From positions 1-64,000 of the forward strand of contig JAQBVF010000019.1 of the NCBI GenBank assembly GCA_027623675.1: a stretch of DNA of 64,000 nt, in the 5' to 3' direction. The stretch's first letter is position 1; each line of letters opens with the position of its first letter. Below are positions 20,038 to 28,637 of this stretch, piece after piece. The position numbers and the translations under genes are program-made. Under the pieces are notes generated by a model. It was not told the DNA's origin. It did no database searches and worked only from the letters and a program-made list of their open reading frames with translations. The DNA is from Chloroflexota bacterium. GTDB lineage: Bacteria > Chloroflexota > Dehalococcoidia > Lucifugimonadales > UBA3495.

Positions 20038-20592
20038 ATGTCCTGGATAGAAGAAGTCTCAACCGAACTTCCCCCGGTGATCGCGTGCATGTCTATCAAC
20101 AAATCGGCTATGGAAGCGGTGCAGAACCTGAATTCCTCCATCACCTTCGGCGCTTCCGCGTTGACCAGGGTCCAGGAGGAGGCCATCGCCACCGTTGTAT
20201 CCACCACCAACCGGTGCCGTTATTGAGCCTTGGCCCACGGAGGGTTCCTCCGTCAGCATTCCGGTGACGCCGAATTCGACAATCACATCATGCACGACTA
20301 CACCCAGGCCGCCCTGGACGACCAGACCAGGGGCATATTAGATTTCGCGGTCAAGCTCACCGAGGACCCGTCGGGCAGCAAGAAAGCGGACCTGGAGCAT
20401 CTGCGCAGTCTGGGCCTAAGCGAGCAGCAGATACTTTCCACGGTCCTGATCACCTGCGTGTTCAACTTCATGAACCGGCTGGCCGACGGCCTAGGCGTGG
20501 AGATGCCGGACAACCGGGTGGAAGCCGCCAAACGGTGGCTGTCGGCCGACGCCCAGGCCATGGACTGGCTGATGACCCCCAAAGAACGCTAG
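20038..20592 (+). CDS. AhpD-like/CMD peroxidase-related selenoprotein (CxxU, TGA at 20224-20226)
   Basis: EAIATVVSTTNRCRY[TGA]ALAHG continues in frame to FNFMNRLADGLG; hairpin at 20237-20253. Confidence 0.88.
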
Positions 20593-20744
20593 CCGGCGCG
20601 CCGATGCGATCCGGTCACTTGGCGCCCCGACAAGCTCGATACCTGGCAGCCGCGAGATCGCAGGGCGTGAATGACCAGACTGGGCAGTCAGGTCAGACCC
20701 CAGCCGCCGTTCAGCCTCAAATTTTGCTATAATCCAAGCCTCGA

Positions 20745-20819
20745 GCGGGCGTAACTCAGGGGTAGAGTGCTTGCTTCCCAAGCAAGATGTCGTGGGTTCA
20801 AATCCCATCGCCCGCTCCA
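20745..20819 (+). tRNA. tRNA-Gly(CCC)
   Basis: GCGGGCG/CGCCCGC acceptor, CTTGC-TTCCCAA-GCAAG anticodon arm, CCA; upstream TGCTATAAT extended -10. Confidence 0.96.
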
Positions 20820-22381
20820 AACTTCATCCGGGCCTATACAGGCGTATCCTCCTCAAACCATTCCGGTAATAAAAAGAGGATGTACGAAAAGCGATACGAC
20901 GCTTCGGACACCCTTTTCATAAACCTCTATTCCTGCGATTTCGCTGCAACTCCATTTCCAGACCCTGGCTTGCCTCAAATTAGATATACTAGCTAACCGG
21001 TTTCTCCACAAAAATCAGCACCGACCTTGGGCCAAGGGATTATTCTGCCGGCGACATTTCCTGTTCGACGGCAAACCAGCTCAACGGATTGGCAAAAGGG
21101 AGACGATCTCATGGCCTCTCCAATCTGCGGCGTTTGTGGCTATAAATTTCCTGACACGGAATCGGCTAAAGGCCCATGTCCGAACGCGGGGAAGCACCGG
21201 GAAATTCGAAACCAGGAAACCATGGATGATTATTTTCAACGCCGCAATTTGTTCCGGACCCTGGACTCTGCAGGCGAAATTCTGAGGACGCGCAGATCAA
21301 AGAACCCAACAAATCGTGAGCCGAAGAACCCAGCGCCGGCTGACTCCAAACCAGCGGATAATCGAGCGGCTGATCCTGAGCCGGTCGACGGTGAATGGTC
21401 CAGCCTTCACCATTTCCAAGGGATGTCACCGAGGGAACTGGAATCTGAAAGACAGCGCACACTCAGGCAGATCGAGCAACGCGGTAAGCCGAAATGGATT
21501 ATCAAAACTGTTGTGTCAGTGGCGGTTGTGGGGATCGTAGGATTGTTGGGATTCGCGGTTGGAGTCCAATTTTTGCCATTGGACGACCAACCCGAGAAGA
21601 TGATTGATTCGGGCGCTTCTGGTGAAGCAGGAATTCCTACCGGGCCAAACTCAGACCTCCCAAAATCTAATAGTGCCGCAGTATTGGTACCTACCCCGAC
21701 TCGAGCATCAACCCTCGCTCCTAGTGCCAAAGATCAACCAGCCACTATGGAGCCAACCCTGACACTAAACGAAATTTTGGGCAAACTAGATCGAGGGGAG
21801 ATCAGCGAGGCTGAAACAAAGCTGCTTTTGCTCCAATCATCAACTCCAGAAAAATCCAAGCCGGAATGCCGTATCAGCGTCCTAGTGTCGCCAACCTCCA
21901 TAACCAAGATATCCTACACTTATGATTTCAACGTATTGAATAACTCAACTTCTGGCCAGCCAAGCTTCTCATGGTCATTTTTTGCTCCCACCGGTGTACG
22001 GTTCCCCAACCAGACTTTTCATTCCATACCAGACTCCAGTTGGTCATTGTTGAAACTGCCCATCGACGGTCCCCCGTATGACGAATATAGGTTTACCACT
22101 GACTCCAACCCGATGCAGTCGAATGGGAGTTCGTTGGCCTTTTCTATTGGGACTCGATCGACTCCGGTTTCCGGCGGAAGAGGAGTCATCTCATTCGCCG
22201 ATGGAACGGTCTGCGAAATTCAGAATCTTCAAGTGCCTGGCGCTGCGACCGTTAACTAGGATCGTCGCGCCGATCTGCAGCTTGGATGTGAGTAGTCGAT
22301 TTTTGGGCATGAAGAAGCCAGTTAGCAGAATCAAAGATGTCGTGGGTTCAAATCCCATCGCCCGCTCCAAACTTCATCCGG
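20784..22381. mobile_element. genomic islet at tRNA-Gly bounded by 48-bp direct repeats
   Basis: 20784-20831 is identical to 22334-22381 (tRNA 3' half plus 12 nt); interior is AT-richer. Confidence 0.8.
21111..22259 (+). CDS. single-TM hypothetical protein (islet cargo)
   Basis: N-terminal CGVC...CP, one TM, Pro/Thr linker, beta-rich C-terminal domain; GGGAGA RBS. Confidence 0.75.
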   Translation: MASPICGVCGYKFPDTESAKGPCPNAGKHREIRNQETMDDYFQRRNLFRTLDSAGEILRTRRSKNPTNREPKNPAPADSKPADNRAADPEPVDGEWSSLHHFQGMSPRELESERQRTLRQIEQRGKPKWIIKTVVSVAVVGIVGLLGFAVGVQFLPLDDQPEKMIDSGASGEAGIPTGPNSDLPKSNSAAVLVPTPTRASTLAPSAKDQPATMEPTLTLNEILGKLDRGEISEAETKLLLLQSSTPEKSKPECRISVLVSPTSITKISYTYDFNVLNNSTSGQPSFSWSFFAPTGVRFPNQTFHSIPDSSWSLLKLPIDGPPYDEYRFTTDSNPMQSNGSSLAFSIGTRSTPVSGGRGVISFADGTVCEIQNLQVPGAATVN

Positions 22382-22544
22382 CGCACCTGGCGGACCCCTC
22401 GGACACCAACTTCCGCGCTAACATGGGGCTGGCAGATCTGCTGGCTAGGAGGCTACCGTAGTAGTTGTAGTGGGTGCGCCCGACCGGCGTGTACGCTGCA
22501 CGGTTGCTGCCAGCCATCTTCGACGTGCCGGGAGTTTTGGTCAC

Positions 22545-23162
22545 ATGTCCCGATTATCAGCCTTTCTATTCGCGGCCCTCATGGTTGGCGCGATAGCCTG
22601 CGGGGGTTCCGCCACCGGACCCGCCTCAGCCACATCGCCCGCCATTAACACTGGGGCCACGCCCACACCCGCTGCCGGCCCGACTACTGACGCGCCACTG
22701 GTGGCCCAGCCCAAACTCGGGACAAACGTGGGGGAGACGCTCCCGCCGTTCGAGTTCGCCCTGTTCGACGGCTCGGTGCGGTCAACCGCACAGCTAGCCA
22801 GCCAGGGGAGGCCGGTGTTCCTATTCTTCTTCGCCACCTGGTGACCCGTCTGCCGCTCCGAGTTACGGAGCATGAAGGATGTCTACCCCGAGTACGCCGA
22901 CAGGGTCGATCTCTACGCCGTGGGCCAAAGCCCTTTCGAGGACATCGATTTGATGGAGGAGTACCGGATCGAGCAGGGCTACCCGTGGCCCGTGGCCAAG
23001 ATCGACCCCAACGTGCTGAAAAGCCTGAATGTGTTCGTGCAGTCCACCAAGATCGCGCTTAACGGCGACGGCGTGATCACCTACCGGGCCGGCTACGGCG
23101 ACGGTGGCGTGGAGGTCTGGCGGGAGGTCTTTGAGAACCTGGTGGACCCAGCCAACCGCTAA
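22545..23162 (+). CDS. thioredoxin-fold (TlpA/redoxin-like) lipoprotein selenoprotein (UxxC, TGA at 22842-22844)
   Basis: GAIAC lipobox; LFFFATW[TGA]PVCRSELRSMKDVY in frame; hairpin at 22855-22871. Confidence 0.9.
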
Positions 23163-23180
23163 GCAGACGGCTCGGCGTGC

Positions 23181-23906
23181 TTACTGGACGCGCCGGTAAA
23201 CCAGATCGACCAAGCCGGCCGTTCCCGCTGCCGACTGCAGCCGGAAGACCGCGACATCCCGGGTGTCTCCGGTGATGCCGCCGGGTGTGGTGGACTTTTT
23301 GAAGGTCCACAGATACAGGTTGTACTTGTCGCTGATCAACGATTCAAAGCTGTTCGGCTCCGAATCCATGTACCCGTTGACCACCAGCGTATTGAAGTCG
23401 AGGGCCGTGAATTCGGCCAGGAACACCGCCAGGGTAACGTCCTTGCCGGTCCCGGTGAGCGGGTCGATGATCTGGAACGGTGTTTTGCCGTCTTTCGCGA
23501 AGAAAACCACACTCCTCACGCCGTCCGAAACATCGTCGGTGGCTGGGAACACGGCCGGATAGGCCAGGGTTCCGGCCACGCCAACACCGAAGGCCCTCTC
23601 CGGCCATAGCTTGGTGATCTCCTGTGTGACATTGTCGGAGGTGACGGCCTTCAATCCCAACACATCATGGTCGAACCGGGAGATGATCCCGACGCCGCCC
23701 TGATCGGTGAAGAACTGGTTGGCCGCGTTGAATACCGTATCCGAGTCGTTCGCTACCTGGGCGTCGCGGCTCTCGTCGGTTGTTCCGGACACCGACGACG
23801 TGACGATGCCCGCCAACACGCCTACGATGGCCATCACGGCCAACAGTTCAATGAGGGTAAAGCCTCGGCTGTTGTTGAGAACAGCATCCCTGATTCTTTG
23901 AAACAT
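23181..23906 (-). CDS. type IV pilin-like / prepilin-type N-terminal cleavage protein
   Basis: RG^FTLIELLAVMAIVGVLA motif. Confidence 0.88.
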   Translation of the reverse strand: MFQRIRDAVLNNSRGFTLIELLAVMAIVGVLAGIVTSSVSGTTDESRDAQVANDSDTVFNAANQFFTDQGGVGIISRFDHDVLGLKAVTSDNVTQEITKLWPERAFGVGVAGTLAYPAVFPATDDVSDGVRSVVFFAKDGKTPFQIIDPLTGTGKDVTLAVFLAEFTALDFNTLVVNGYMDSEPNSFESLISDKYNLYLWTFKKSTTPGGITGDTRDVAVFRLQSAAGTAGLVDLVYRRVQ

Positions 23907-24197
23907 CTAGTTTGGTCCCCCGGTCAACCTGAATCTGACGCCGTCGGTGCGCGGCAAGCAGCCTTCGGTCTGGGTGCATTTCTTAGGGTTCTTGCCCTTA
24001 AGGTTAGGCCCGCCGGCCGGAAAAATCGCCGGTGACTGCCTGCAATTCGGTTGGGGGAAAACCCGCAACCTGACCGGAACCCGCCAGATGTTTTGGCAAA
24101 TGGGGGTTGAGTTTGACGGCCCCCGCGCACGGTGGTAGATTCTCGCCAGCCGGGACCAGCCTATCTCCGCCGGGACAGGGGGCCGGCCGGGATTGCT

Positions 24198-24787
24198 TGA
24201 TGCCGGGAGATGCGGTGCCAGCCAAAGTTATCTGCAAGACCATCGACTTGCTCCAATTTCCCGCGATCGCGGAGTTCATCTGGCATCTGCTAACGAGGGT
24301 CAGCCGGCTGACCGAAGACGAGACCGGCGCGGCTAAGCAGGTGCTTGGGGTTGAGGCCGTCCGGTTCGGCCGGGTCCGGGTGGCGGAAGGCCGGGTCCTG
24401 CGCCTGTTTTTCCGGCTGAACGGCTCCAGGGCTTTCACCCTGTTCCACACTCTCAACCTACCGGCGGAGGGGCGTCACTCCAGGGGAAATCTGGACCTGC
24501 TGGTGCACGAGATGGTCCACGTGCGGCAATTTGAATCGGTCGGTACGATCTACATCTGGCAGGCTTTGAGGGCGCAAAAGGCCGAGGGATACAGCTACGG
24601 CGGTTGGGAAGGCCTGGCTGCCGAAAGGCCGGACGGGAAGCGGTTCAGCGGGTTCAACCGCGAGCAGCAAGGTCAGATCGCCCAGGACTACTACAACCTG
24701 GTCCTAACACCCGGCCTGCCCCAGGAAAACCCGGTCCGGCTGGCATACCAGCCGTATATCGAAGACCTGCAGGCTGGAAGCATTTAA
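24198..24787 (+). CDS. HExxH metallopeptidase-like protein (DUF4157-like)
   Basis: LLVHEMVHVRQ, FNREQQGQI; start uncertain. Confidence 0.65.
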
Positions 24788-24905
24788 GCGGAACGTCCAA
24801 AGCCTGGGCGCCGGTCAAATTGACACGCCCAAGGGCGGATGCTAGCGTTTACCCCGATGCCCTGGGGCATGCCGAACAGACGACCACCAGACACACGGAG
24901 ACGAT

Positions 24906-25946
24906 TTGAAGTTTAGTAATTTCCTCTTCCCCGAGAGCAAAACCCCGGAGGGTGATTTCGACGTCATCGAGGAGTCGCTGCGTGAGGCCGAACTGTCGGA
25001 AGAACTGGGCTACGACGTTATCTGGCTGGCGGAGCACCATTTCGACGGCGGCTGCGCCTACGTGGACCCGACCACCTTCGCCGCGGCCATCGCCGCCCGC
25101 ACCACGAAGATCAAGATCGGCTTTGCCGTCGCCCAGATGGCCCTGCACCATCCCATCAGGTTCGCCGAGCAGATCGCGCTGGTCGACAACATCAGCAAGG
25201 GCCGCATGATTGTCGGCGTGGGCCGGGGCACCGCTTACAACTTCTACGAGTTCCGGGGGTTCGGCATCGACCCCGACGAAGCCCACGACATGCTGCTGGA
25301 AGTGGAAGATATCCTGGTCAAGGCCTGGACCACCAAGAACTACCAGCACGACGGAAAATACTGGCAGTTGGAATTGCCGGTGCTGCGGCCCCAGGTGTAC
25401 CAGAAGCCCCATCCGCCGATGATCCGGGCGTGCTCAGGGCTGGATTCCACTCTGGAGATGGCACGCGAGGGCCGCCCCTTCATGATGAACGTGCAGAGCG
25501 ACGAGACCACGTTGGAGCGGATGGACCAGTACCGGGCCACGATGTCGGAGGCCGGGTTCGACGATGCAACGGTCGCCCGCAACGTGGCCGACTCGTGGGT
25601 CTGGCGCAACATCTTCGTGGCTGACACCGACGCCGAAGCCGAGGAAGTGGGGCTGCGTTACTTCCGCGACATGCGCGTGTATCTGCAGGAGAACCGGAAC
25701 CGCATGAACACCGCCGGCGAGTTGGCGGCCCAGGCGGCTAGGATCACCGGCTCGGCCAGGGACTCGCTGGAACACGGCGTCATCTGCGGCTCGCCCGATA
25801 CCGTCAGTGAAAGGCTGCGGAAGGTGAACGACAGCGGAGTGGGCGGAGTGATCATCCATTTCCGCCTGGGCGCCATGCCCTACGACGTGAACGCCCACAG
25901 CCTAAGGCTGTTCGCCGAGAAGGTGGCGCCCAACTTCCGAAGCTAG
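24906..25946 (+). CDS. LLM class flavin-dependent oxidoreductase
   Basis: TTG start after GGAGA; WLAEHHF, QKPHPP. Confidence 0.92.
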   Translation: MKFSNFLFPESKTPEGDFDVIEESLREAELSEELGYDVIWLAEHHFDGGCAYVDPTTFAAAIAARTTKIKIGFAVAQMALHHPIRFAEQIALVDNISKGRMIVGVGRGTAYNFYEFRGFGIDPDEAHDMLLEVEDILVKAWTTKNYQHDGKYWQLELPVLRPQVYQKPHPPMIRACSGLDSTLEMAREGRPFMMNVQSDETTLERMDQYRATMSEAGFDDATVARNVADSWVWRNIFVADTDAEAEEVGLRYFRDMRVYLQENRNRMNTAGELAAQAARITGSARDSLEHGVICGSPDTVSERLRKVNDSGVGGVIIHFRLGAMPYDVNAHSLRLFAEKVAPNFRS

Positions 25947-25974
25947 GCGCCCGGCGATTGGTCCTGCGTGGAGG

Positions 25975-26424
25975 CTATTTCAGGCCCAGCAGCTCCACGG
26001 CGAACTTGAGGGTGGCGTTGGGTGGAATGACTCCACCGGCGCCCCGCGCTCCGTAGGCCAGGTCGGGGGGTACGATCAGCTCCACCTTGCCGCCGATATT
26101 CATGGTCGCCACGCCTTCGTCCCAGCCCTTGATGACCCGGCCCGCGCCCAGCGGGAACTCGAACGGCGTGCCCCGGTCAACCGAGCTGTCGAACTTGGTG
26201 CCGTCCAGCAGCCAGCCGGTGTAGTGGACCACTGCGGTCTGGCCCGCAACTGCCTGCTCTCCAGTGCCCACTTCCACTACCGTGATCTGTAAGCCGGATG
26301 CCGTGGTGGTTGTTTCTTGATCTGCCACTTTTACCTCTGTGCCTGGTTCTGATTCGGAGCCGGAGGACGACCCGCATGCGATCCCCACTGTCGCCAGGAA
26401 CACCAATATCAAGAGCCACCGCAT
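25975..26424 (-). CDS. FKBP-type peptidyl-prolyl isomerase lipoprotein
   Basis: [31 protein letters not shown]. Confidence 0.95.
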
Positions 26425-26623
26425 GTCGTAAGCCTCCGTCTATACCTGAGCCTATACCTGGACCGCGCCTGATGAAGGGCGAGACGCGATTGATCGCGCT
26501 CAACTCTTGGCCGGCCGCGCTCAAGATGGTAGCACACCTTTAGCGCCCGGAGCGCCGGTGGTGTATCGGATTGACCGCATTTGGACTATGATGTCACTTA
26601 CTTAAATTTCGGAGGATACACCG

Positions 26624-27007
26624 ATGACCGACGATTTCAGACAGCGGGTAGAGGCTGCCAAGAAGCAGACGAAGTCCGTCACAGTTACCGAATCTCAGAA
26701 GCGGCTTGAGGCCAACCCCGCGGCCCTGATAATCGAGACCCGGCTCCGCGAGAACGTGCCCGTGGAAGAGCAGCACGAGAACGTGGTCTTCCTTTCTGTC
26801 GAGGACCTGGACGCTCAGGCAGAAGACCGGTCCAAGCTGGACCCCCGCTTGGCGGACCCCAACGTGGAGATCATCACGACTTGAAAACTTGGTAATAGGG
26901 CCGCCGTCGGCGCCCAGATACTCCAAGACATGGGATTCAACAACGTGACCTACATGGAAGGCGGCATGGCAGCCTGGAACGAGGCCGGCCTCCCAACAAA
27001 GAAGTAA
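26624..27007 (+). CDS. rhodanese-domain selenoprotein (TGA at 26882-26884 at the active-site position)
   Basis: EIITT[TGA]KLGNRAAVGAQILQDMGFNNVTYMEGGMAAWNEAGLP; hairpin at 26898-26915. Confidence 0.88.
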
Positions 27008-27074
27008 GAGCCGCTTAATCTGAAAGTAGATTGAATGGTCGAAACATTTATAGAGCCTTGGCAATGCCAAGGCT

Positions 27075-28637
27075 CTATATTATTTTCCCCAGCCTTTCTC
27101 GATTGAATCTTCCTGTAGCAGCGAGCAATCCCAGATTGAATCCCGTATCCCGTTGTTTGTTGGCTTGCGAGGACCACTCCTCGGCCAGACTCTTTAGTTC
27201 TTTGGCCGTAATCAACACTAGGTTACGGCCAAAATGCTGGGCGTGGTAGCGAATCGCTTCGGCTTCAGAATCTTCAGTGAACTCTGGGCCAATCACAAGA
27301 AATACTGGCACCGGCTTATCTGCGTGGTTCATGTACCCATCAAATTGAGCGATATGGTCTCTCAAATTAACCGGGGATTCTTTAGATTTGTTATCCCACA
27401 TGAGATAGTTCATCTGTAGGCTCAACAGGCCATCCGGATGAGCGGTGCCGCGTTGATGTAGGGGGGAATGATTCAGCAATTCCTCGAATAAGTAGGAGGT
27501 CGCATCTTCGAATTTAGATTCAATCTCTAGATCCTTGTCGATAATGTGTTGGGCACGTAACTTGTCGTGGTCTCGGGCGGCAAGCTCTTCATAAAACTCG
27601 TACCAGGCCTCTCGCTCATCAGATTCGGCAACGATTCTGGGGCGAAGCTGATCAAAGTGCTCAATCACTCTCGCCACCCGTTCTTCAATAGCACCGTAAG
27701 CGTTGATGTTCAATTGCCGGCACCAGGTGGTTAGCTGGTCGCTATTTAACCCAAACCTTGGGGAGTTGCTGGCGATCGCCTGTGACGCCGGAACATACCT
27801 GAGTACCCGTTCAACCAAAGTATCGATGTTGTCGTATCGTCCGAACTCCACGTTGGCCCGGCTTAAGATTTCCGTGAGATGCGATTTTCTGCGTAACGGC
27901 CGATGCTCCATCAGTTGTCTGTAGCTCTCGCTCCTTAATTCAACCCCTGCAAACTTCCGAATGTTGATTGCTATCTCTTCTGGAATAATATCAAGGTCTG
28001 CGTCACCGTCTTGCCGGACTGAAAACAACAAGCCCAAACCCTGCAGGTGACGTCTCGCCTCGCCAATCTCAGTCCTCGTGTGAAGCAGATTTGATGCTTT
28101 CGGGAACTTCCCGAGTTTGGCCTCAAGAAGGCGGTGGTCGGATTCTGTGATGCCCAGCCTCGCACGTAGTTTCTTTAAGAGATTAACTTCATCTGCACTT
28201 TTGGCATCTTCGTTTTCCCAGGCAACACGTAGGACGAAGAAATACAGATCCAAATCGCGATACCTGTGGGTGTCGTCATTTCCTGCCGCCAAATCGGATA
28301 GTTCAAGCTCGTTCGACCGATTGACCACCGATTGTTCGAAGGCAATCACCTGTTCCTCTGAATGAGAACTTGGCAGTAGAAAATCGTATTGGTCCAACAA
28401 TACATCAATCAACAAGACGTACGACAGGACTCGGAGGTCATTCCGAGGATTCTTGTACAACGCCTTTTCAAGATTCCCAGTAACCGTCTGTTCATGAAGG
28501 TACTGCGGCTTAACCTTGATTAAAGCCTCACGCAACTCGTCTTCAGTCAGTTGGCGGTGATCCACTACGTGGGCCCCGGCGATGCGCCGAAGGTCAGTTA
28601 ATGTGCTAATCGCTTCTACGGCATCTTCGAATTTCAA
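27075..28637 (-). CDS. putative restriction-endonuclease-like protein (C-terminal PD-(D/E)XK)
   Basis: 520 aa, AT-richer; FED...HPDG...WDNKS motif. Confidence 0.6.
   Translation of the reverse strand: MKFEDAVEAISTLTDLRRIAGAHVVDHRQLTEDELREALIKVKPQYLHEQTVTGNLEKALYKNPRNDLRVLSYVLLIDVLLDQYDFLLPSSHSEEQVIAFEQSVVNRSNELELSDLAAGNDDTHRYRDLDLYFFVLRVAWENEDAKSADEVNLLKKLRARLGITESDHRLLEAKLGKFPKASNLLHTRTEIGEARRHLQGLGLLFSVRQDGDADLDIIPEEIAINIRKFAGVELRSESYRQLMEHRPLRRKSHLTEILSRANVEFGRYDNIDTLVERVLRYVPASQAIASNSPRFGLNSDQLTTWCRQLNINAYGAIEERVARVIEHFDQLRPRIVAESDEREAWYEFYEELAARDHDKLRAQHIIDKDLEIESKFEDATSYLFEELLNHSPLHQRGTAHPDGLLSLQMNYLMWDNKSKESPVNLRDHIAQFDGYMNHADKPVPVFLVIGPEFTEDSEAEAIRYHAQHFGRNLVLITAKELKSLAEEWSSQANKQRDTGFNLGLLAATGRFNRERLGKII

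Follow-up and report, generated by a model that had tools for sequence, protein, structure and literature searches.

The DNA analysed here (the window, a stretch of 64,000 nucleotides) is contig C43 of a 3.07 Mb Chloroflexota assembly with a GC content of 61%, 91% complete and 5.7% contaminated. It carries on its forward strand, between positions 20,038 and 27,007, three candidate selenoprotein genes, each with an in-frame TGA codon, encoding an AhpD-like protein, a TlpA/ResA-like thioredoxin-fold protein and a single-domain rhodanese. An earlier note on this DNA had stated that the three TGAs replace catalytic Cys residues, and all three were indeed found to align to active-site Cys residues of solved homologs. 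The same note placed the loop G of a short hairpin with a GT-containing loop at +18, +18 and +22 from the three TGAs, values that proved exact, with the loop G followed by U in each case.

Three genes with in-frame TGA codons

The AhpD-like gene (20038..20592, + strand) encodes 184 residues in a frame that opens with the TGA read as selenocysteine (Sec, U), and was matched by the TIGR01926 profile with a score of 119.5 bits (cut-off 81.8), the match spanning the TGA. The Sec codon (20224..20226, +; context N-R-C-R-Y-U) aligns to the second Cys of the CxxC motif of the solved homologs 2pfx and 6k40, giving the motif C60-R-Y-U63 with E48 and H67. The protein has the E-x11-C-x2-C-x3-H relay spacing, with E48, C60, Y62, U63 and H67 spaced as in the relay of PA0269, which was used for comparison (PMC3141380). 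The upper stem of the putative selenocysteine insertion sequence (SECIS; 20237..20253, +, corresponding to +11..+27) comprises 7 bp and a GUU loop with the loop G at 20244 (+18), with a dG of -11.8. The aligned homologs carry TGA at the Sec site in 74 cases out of 79, Gly in four and TAA in one, and among 67 distinct TGA rows the loop G is kept throughout, 5/7 pairs hold in every row and two-sided changes occur at pairs +14:+24 and +17:+21. By homology, the C-x-x-U centre would reduce peroxides or a partner disulfide. The protein shares the TIGR01926 cut-off pass, the CxxU motif and the relay spacing with the AhpD-like selenoprotein of Table 1 of PMC13188914, from which it shows no difference in kind, and its assignment as the NF041238 CFYUT equivalog was rejected (55 bits, cut-off 175).

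Two further observations concern AhpD-like genes of relatives. In homologs L112-L115 the Sec site is occupied by Gly (GGA/GGG) and the hairpin is partly decayed, only 5/7 stem pairs being kept; this is an apparent loss of Sec to Gly that leaves C-x-x-G. Elsewhere a second TGA-bearing AhpD-like gene, approximately 33% identical, is found immediately upstream of the first and on the other strand (G002:C5:58307, G016:C4:33285, and also in G008 and G011); this second, divergent gene was not found in the present genome (G000).

The TlpA/ResA-like gene (22545..23162, +) encodes 205 residues with the motif U100-P-V-C103, and its product scores above the PF00578 and PF08534 cut-offs with matches running across the TGA. 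The Sec codon (22842..22844, +; context T-W-U-P-V-C) aligns to the first Cys of the CxxC motif in the solved homolog 3or5 and is TGA in 17/17 close orthologs from the 19 genomes of the genus that were searched. The SECIS upper stem (22855..22871, +; +11..+27) has 6 bp and the loop AGUUA, with the loop G at 22862 (+18) and a dG of -9.0; the loop A-G-U-U is invariant in 18/18 rows, and a Leu codon of the hairpin is TTA in 82% of rows, compared with 1.8% genome-wide. The N-terminus resembles, by eye, a lipoprotein signal and is followed by a long Pro/Thr linker. The predicted function is that of a disulfide reductase, anchored in the membrane and facing outwards, in which Sec would make the attack. 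The protein shares its UxxC motif and TlpA/ResA fold with the Prx-like thiol:disulfide oxidoreductase and Redoxin selenoproteins (PF00578, PF08534; Table 1 of PMC13188914), from which the present protein differs in its predicted lipoprotein anchor, in its linker and in falling below all NCBIfam cut-offs.

The rhodanese gene (26624..27007, +) encodes 127 residues with the active-site loop U87-K-L-G-N-R, and matches PF00581 above cut-off across the TGA. Its Sec codon (26882..26884, +; context T-T-U-K-L-G) aligns to the loop Cys of the solved homolog 6mxv, and the close ortholog has TGA in 18/19 genomes of the genus. The SECIS upper stem (26898..26915, +; +14..+31) consists of 4+3 bp with one bulged C and a GUC loop, the loop G lying at 26906 (+22), with a dG of -9.9. 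The predicted enzyme would carry sulfane sulfur on Sec instead of as a Cys persulfide. With Sec at the catalytic loop Cys and a U-x-x-G motif, it resembles the rhodanese-like selenoprotein forms 2/4 (PF00581, UxxG; Table 1 of PMC13188914), while form 3 (NF041203) was rejected at 21.9 bits against a cut-off of 115.

The earlier note had also supposed that such genes are missed by standard gene calling, and truncated products of 62, 86 and 99 residues were found for the three genes in the NCBI, IMG and ENA collections using a look-up that is blind to U-bearing records.

Sec machinery and the reading of UGA

The absence of sel genes from the window, remarked on in the earlier note, was borne out, and all four components (selA, selB, selC, which is the tRNA-Sec, and selD), whose absence would have spoken against Sec decoding, were located on other contigs of the whole assembly: SelA on C33, SelB on C45, SelD on C3 and tRNA-Sec on C23, all above their family cut-offs. 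The selD gene itself contains one in-frame TGA. SelB scores above cut-off in 55/61 genomes of the order, including 27/27 of high quality, and its C-terminal RNA-binding motif is conventional, aligning with those of E. coli SelB and 4zu9. SelB carrying GTP and Sec-tRNA would bind the G[U/G] loop located 17-28 nt past the UGA on a stem of 5-8 bp, and the bound Sec-tRNA would then outcompete termination at the UGA.

The relatives that share the three TGAs are 45-80% identical at the protein level, with open and conserved frames on both sides of the codon, although homolog loci and genus genomes may overlap, meaning that the counts are not additive and the kin not independent. Across the hairpins an Arg codon is fixed as CGT (92%, compared with 8% genome-wide, where it is rare). 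Nonsense mutations or assembly errors, which would make the three genes pseudogenes, do occur in this assembly, namely in an MFS gene (C47-14831), a CHRD gene (C27-21114), an AMP-binding gene (C35-51873) and at C9+45450. However, the three TGAs are common to most relatives at this distance, and because they are conserved in this way the pseudogene explanation is refuted and can be regarded as vanishingly improbable. Reassignment of UGA throughout the genome to Trp or Gly, or insertion of Cys rather than Sec, would accord with the under-use of TGA as a stop for a genome of 61% GC; however, TGA still ends approximately 20% of genes, the conserved in-frame TGAs fall at Cys positions of the alignments, both SelA and SelD are intact, and the sole tRNA with a TCA anticodon in the genome is tRNA-Sec (70.4 bits), making this alternative very improbable.

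What is observed directly is the codons and hairpins, the conservation of both, and the Sec machinery. It is therefore considered very likely that the three UGAs are read as Sec by means of an ordinary bacterial SECIS together with the SelA, SelB, SelD and tRNA-Sec of the genome, giving three redox enzymes among approximately 42 predicted selenoproteins.

Selenoprotein census and form of the SECIS

A genome-wide census combined a hexamer coding model with scans for hairpins and with comparison against relatives. A codon-position filter was applied in the TGA/Cys comparison, the unfiltered version being swamped by antisense frames, and 2.0 of the 3.6 Mb of the relative G002 were compared, so that short or C-terminal Sec genes may be missed. 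From 75 short-listed sites, 50 were passed to Pfam, a further 4 were dealt with elsewhere, and inspection by eye removed the other 21 as neighbouring genes or frames without coding character; of the 50 scanned, 37 were kept and 13 rejected, and two C-terminal cases were added later. The large selenoproteome suggested in the earlier note, which had called for such a scan for TGA/Cys pairs with hairpins, was thereby recovered as 42 intact candidate genes plus one truncated DsbA, a count that may be low given the incomplete assembly and the limited part of G002 that was covered. At least one homolog from a relative has TGA at the aligned site for 37/43 of these genes.

In addition to the three genes of the window, the families found more than once comprise eight UGSC, three PrdB/GrdB-like, two DsbA-like, two Rdx, two OsmC and two glutaredoxin-like genes (C-terminal Sec), as well as three genes in a mer-type cluster. 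The single families are SelD, DUF3179, deiodinase-like, Prx-like, SelL-like UxxU, BCP, CMD/YciW-like, ArsC/Spx-like, BtuF-like, ferredoxin-thioredoxin reductase, CC/Se-motif, sulfurtransferase, antiporter-rhodanese, Trx-NHL, Grx-DinB, NMT1/SsuA-like and MFS. The predicted selenoproteome consists mostly of thiol oxidoreductases.

Several candidates were rejected or set apart. A second MFS gene (C47:14831) has Gly in its orthologs and TGA in 0/15 close orthologs of other genomes; the CHRD/DNRLRE gene (C27:21114), the AMP-binding gene (C35:51873) and C9:45450 carry genome-specific nonsense TGAs; pairs of adjacent in-frame genes were dropped; and the DsbA fragment (C44+13977), which is truncated and whose nearest homolog has Arg, was counted apart from the 42. 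Among the genes retained, the ferredoxin-thioredoxin reductase (L167:312-734, C15) has TGA in 7/16 genomes of the genus and no stop in nine (Cys in G002), a case of Sec and Cys replacing each other inside a single genus. In the mer-type cluster, the glutaredoxin (L407, C26:59944-60177) has TGA in 10/10 genomes in which it was found, and its loop is UUA here versus GUA/GUU in close orthologs; its recoding may be impaired in this genome. The CC/Se-motif gene (L222-L236; S-S-U-G-G), which we take to have a HesB-like fold, has TGA in 16/16 genomes in which it was found and a tandem TGA-bearing paralog in seven.

A hairpin with a GU loop (loop G at +17..+26, dG <= -5) follows 31/45 census Sec sites, compared with 21/438 other gene ends at TGA and 33/600 sampled Cys codons. 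Equal frequency after true TGA stops, named in the earlier note as grounds for dismissing the hairpins, was thus not what was found, as they are approximately 14 times rarer after other TGA ends, although the 31/45 figure is partly circular because hairpins helped to choose some of the candidates. A less circular split on coding signal gave hairpins at 10/26 TGA ends with coding-like in-frame sequence downstream and at 15/428 without. Published bacterial SECIS elements have a loop of 3-9 nt with G in the first two loop positions, a spacing of 16-37 nt, a stem of 4-16 bp and a dG <= -7.5 (PMC13188914). All three hairpins of the window and 35/45 census sites lie within these constraints, which are loose enough to admit 24% of the other TGA ends as well as 35% of the Cys codons. 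The loop G of the census sites falls at +17 to +28, mostly +18 to +22, with one outlier at +33.

The earlier note spoke of a minimal design and of a lineage-specific SECIS model; a version of this in which the design is read by a specialised SelB and missed by general models was considered. Triloops are the commonest loop (17/42 hairpins), the three stems of the window contain no E. coli-like bulged U, and in the 3' untranslated region (UTR) of a glutaredoxin-like gene the hairpin has a triloop on a perfect stem of 6 bp. However, such triloops are covered by the pattern N1-G[G|U]-N-N2, with N1:N2 paired, as published in PMC13188914; the 35 sites lie within the general constraints; the SelB terminal motif aligns with those of E. 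coli and 4zu9; and the AhpD hairpin with the same GUU loop at +18 is present in Binatia/Thermodesulfobacteriota homologs (L128-L131). The elements are, like the canonical bacterial SECIS (consensus in PMC13188914; E. coli fdhF), coding-region hairpins placed 11-13 nt past the UGA with G then U in the loop, the loop G lying at +18 to +22 here and at +20 (G23) in E. coli (PMC8659212). They differ from fdhF in having mostly perfect short stems and no equivalent of the bulged U17, two of the three stems in the window being unbulged and the rhodanese stem having a bulged C/A. A specialised, lineage-specific SECIS is accordingly judged unlikely, and the SECIS rule adds nothing new. The word "minimal" from the earlier note is nevertheless fair, because the UTR hairpin, free of coding constraint, is a 6-bp stem with a triloop; the design does not lie outside the known bacterial model. 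In 15/15 genomes in which the gene was found, that hairpin has a G[U/G]Y triloop at +19 and a stem that varies by compensatory changes, and the two glutaredoxin-like genes with C-terminal Sec (UXX-star-like; L392-L406, C9:22920-23156, and L383), which have their SECIS in the 3' UTR, offer a clean natural hairpin model.

Several points weigh against reading the three TGAs, and the wider set, as Sec codons. Sec decoding is predicted here from sequence, and the functions of the three enzymes are predicted from homology only, with the TlpA-like and rhodanese proteins passing no NCBIfam cut-off. Three census sites of this genome (UGSC8, the mer glutaredoxin and MFS) have no G-loop hairpin, and 10/45 miss the published SECIS constraints. 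For six census genes the relative set contains no homolog with TGA, and their support is a Pfam domain across the TGA together with a known motif and a hairpin. Nonsense TGAs peculiar to this genome interrupt otherwise intact genes and look like Sec sites, one of them having a hairpin and Gly in orthologs, and a few genes may be foreign because of the contamination of 5.7%.

The stop codons of the predicted genes are TAG in 49-51%, TAA in 30% and TGA in 20-21% at 61% GC, even though TGA is the commonest of the three stop triplets in the raw sequence. The corresponding values for G002 (stretches L283-L382) are 45%, 32% and 24%, and TAG is reported to make up approximately 20% of stops whatever the GC content (PMC3549826). 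As a hypothesis, the TAG bias may be linked to the use of Sec, the comparison being with general figures.

Gene order, precedent and biological meaning

The AhpD, TlpA and rhodanese genes keep their order and orientation, on a single contig, in six genomes of the genus (G002, G005, G006, G010, G016 and G017). Between them in the window are a tRNA-Gly(CCC) gene (20745..20819, +), which is an integration site and has no part in the Sec system, and a 1.55 kb insert flanked by an identical 48-bp repeat of the tRNA 3' end (20784-20831 and 22334-22381). The insert has one open reading frame (ORF, 21027-22259) with no Pfam match, and no integrase was seen in it. There follow genes for a type IV pilin-like protein (23181-23906, -), an eCIS-core domain protein (ORF ending at 24787, +), a luciferase-like monooxygenase (LLM; 24906-25946, +) and an FKBP lipoprotein (25975-26424, -). 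A 14-bp hairpin after the rhodanese gene (27049..27079, +) is terminator-like by consensus match only.

The conserved order could point to a selected functional cluster, such as a selenium or sulfur redox island. This is favoured by its retention in the six genomes and by the fact that a second TGA-bearing AhpD gene and a Sec-bearing MFS gene are added to the block in certain genomes, resulting in five such genes in approximately 7 kb in G002, which speaks against ordinary gene order. However, the non-Sec neighbours (LLM, FKBP, eCIS-core and PNPOx-like) are equally syntenic, the three genes are separated by the tRNA, the insert and opposite-strand genes, so that they do not form a selenoprotein operon of the SAO/Tso type, and when 43 genes were placed at random, 14% of 20,000 trials contained three within 6.7 kb. 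Because of this equal synteny and the frequency of random triples the cluster is probably not special, and its selection as a functional unit is unlikely. Rather than an operon, the three genes are likely neighbours with separate transcription whose order has been inherited. The earlier note had taken their density within 7 kb as a sign of a large selenoproteome missed by gene calling; a large predicted set does exist, but the density itself reflects inherited gene order and does not go beyond chance. The Sec-bearing MFS gene (L237-L249) has TGA in 13/13 genomes in which it was found, lying between the TlpA and rhodanese genes in some and beside a multi-rhodanese gene in others, a placement that hints at sulfur or selenium traffic.

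The records of the closest homologs bear titles that are nearly all Dehalococcoidia or Chloroflexota, and the genome encodes cytochrome oxidase subunit I and 85 LLM matches. Expansion of LLM genes is a trait of SAR202. A cultured representative of this clade is reported (PMC10444878). From the class-level titles of relatives, the oxidase and the LLM matches, the host is likely an aerobic SAR202-type member of the Dehalococcoidia. No Sec formate dehydrogenase was found in the genome, the two molybdopterin-family matches both being without an internal stop.

All three families of the window appear in Table 1 of PMC13188914, and the top ten of BSepDB (2026; Table 2 of PMC13326102) contains two Dehalococcoidia genomes with 49 and 46 selenoprotein genes, the top entry having 63. 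The present set belongs to the same class and is similar in size, and the 46-gene isolate is among the AhpD homolog loci (L095, L105); BSepDB may already list this genome. In a search of the literature on SAR202/Dehalococcoidia selenoproteins by title and abstract, with most subscription journals outside its reach, only BSepDB was on topic. There is thus precedent for the three families, for the design of the hairpin and for large sets of selenoproteins in Dehalococcoidia. Two members of the set of 42, an MFS transporter and an NMT1/SsuA-like protein, are absent from the 2026 table of 119 families. PMC13188914 gives 63 genes as an upper bound, describes rich organisms as mostly anaerobic and states that aerobic bacteria rarely retain selenoproteins; elsewhere an older isolate record of 39, then 46, is given (PMC12013277), and Sec use is described as common in aerobes, yet with anaerobes forming 78% of selenoprotein-rich organisms (PMC5029168).

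The remaining interest lies in a likely aerobe this rich in selenoproteins in which no Sec formate dehydrogenase was found, in a few families outside the 2026 inventory and in the low TGA and high TAG stop use. A broader proposal, tentative and on present evidence improbable, is of an oxygen-respiring Dehalococcoidia lineage that uses Sec across the order, with approximately 14 selenoprotein genes/Mb, no Sec formate dehydrogenase, Sec in transporters and binding-protein folds, and stop codons reshaped to keep UGA mainly for Sec. If true, such an order-wide aerobic Sec lineage would run against the view of selenoprotein-rich bacteria as anaerobes, and a likely aerobe with approximately 42 selenoproteins would be a useful counter-example. 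Public gene calls cut the three genes at the catalytic residue and approximately 40 similar genes are predicted; metabolic models of the lineage therefore likely miss much of its redox machinery.

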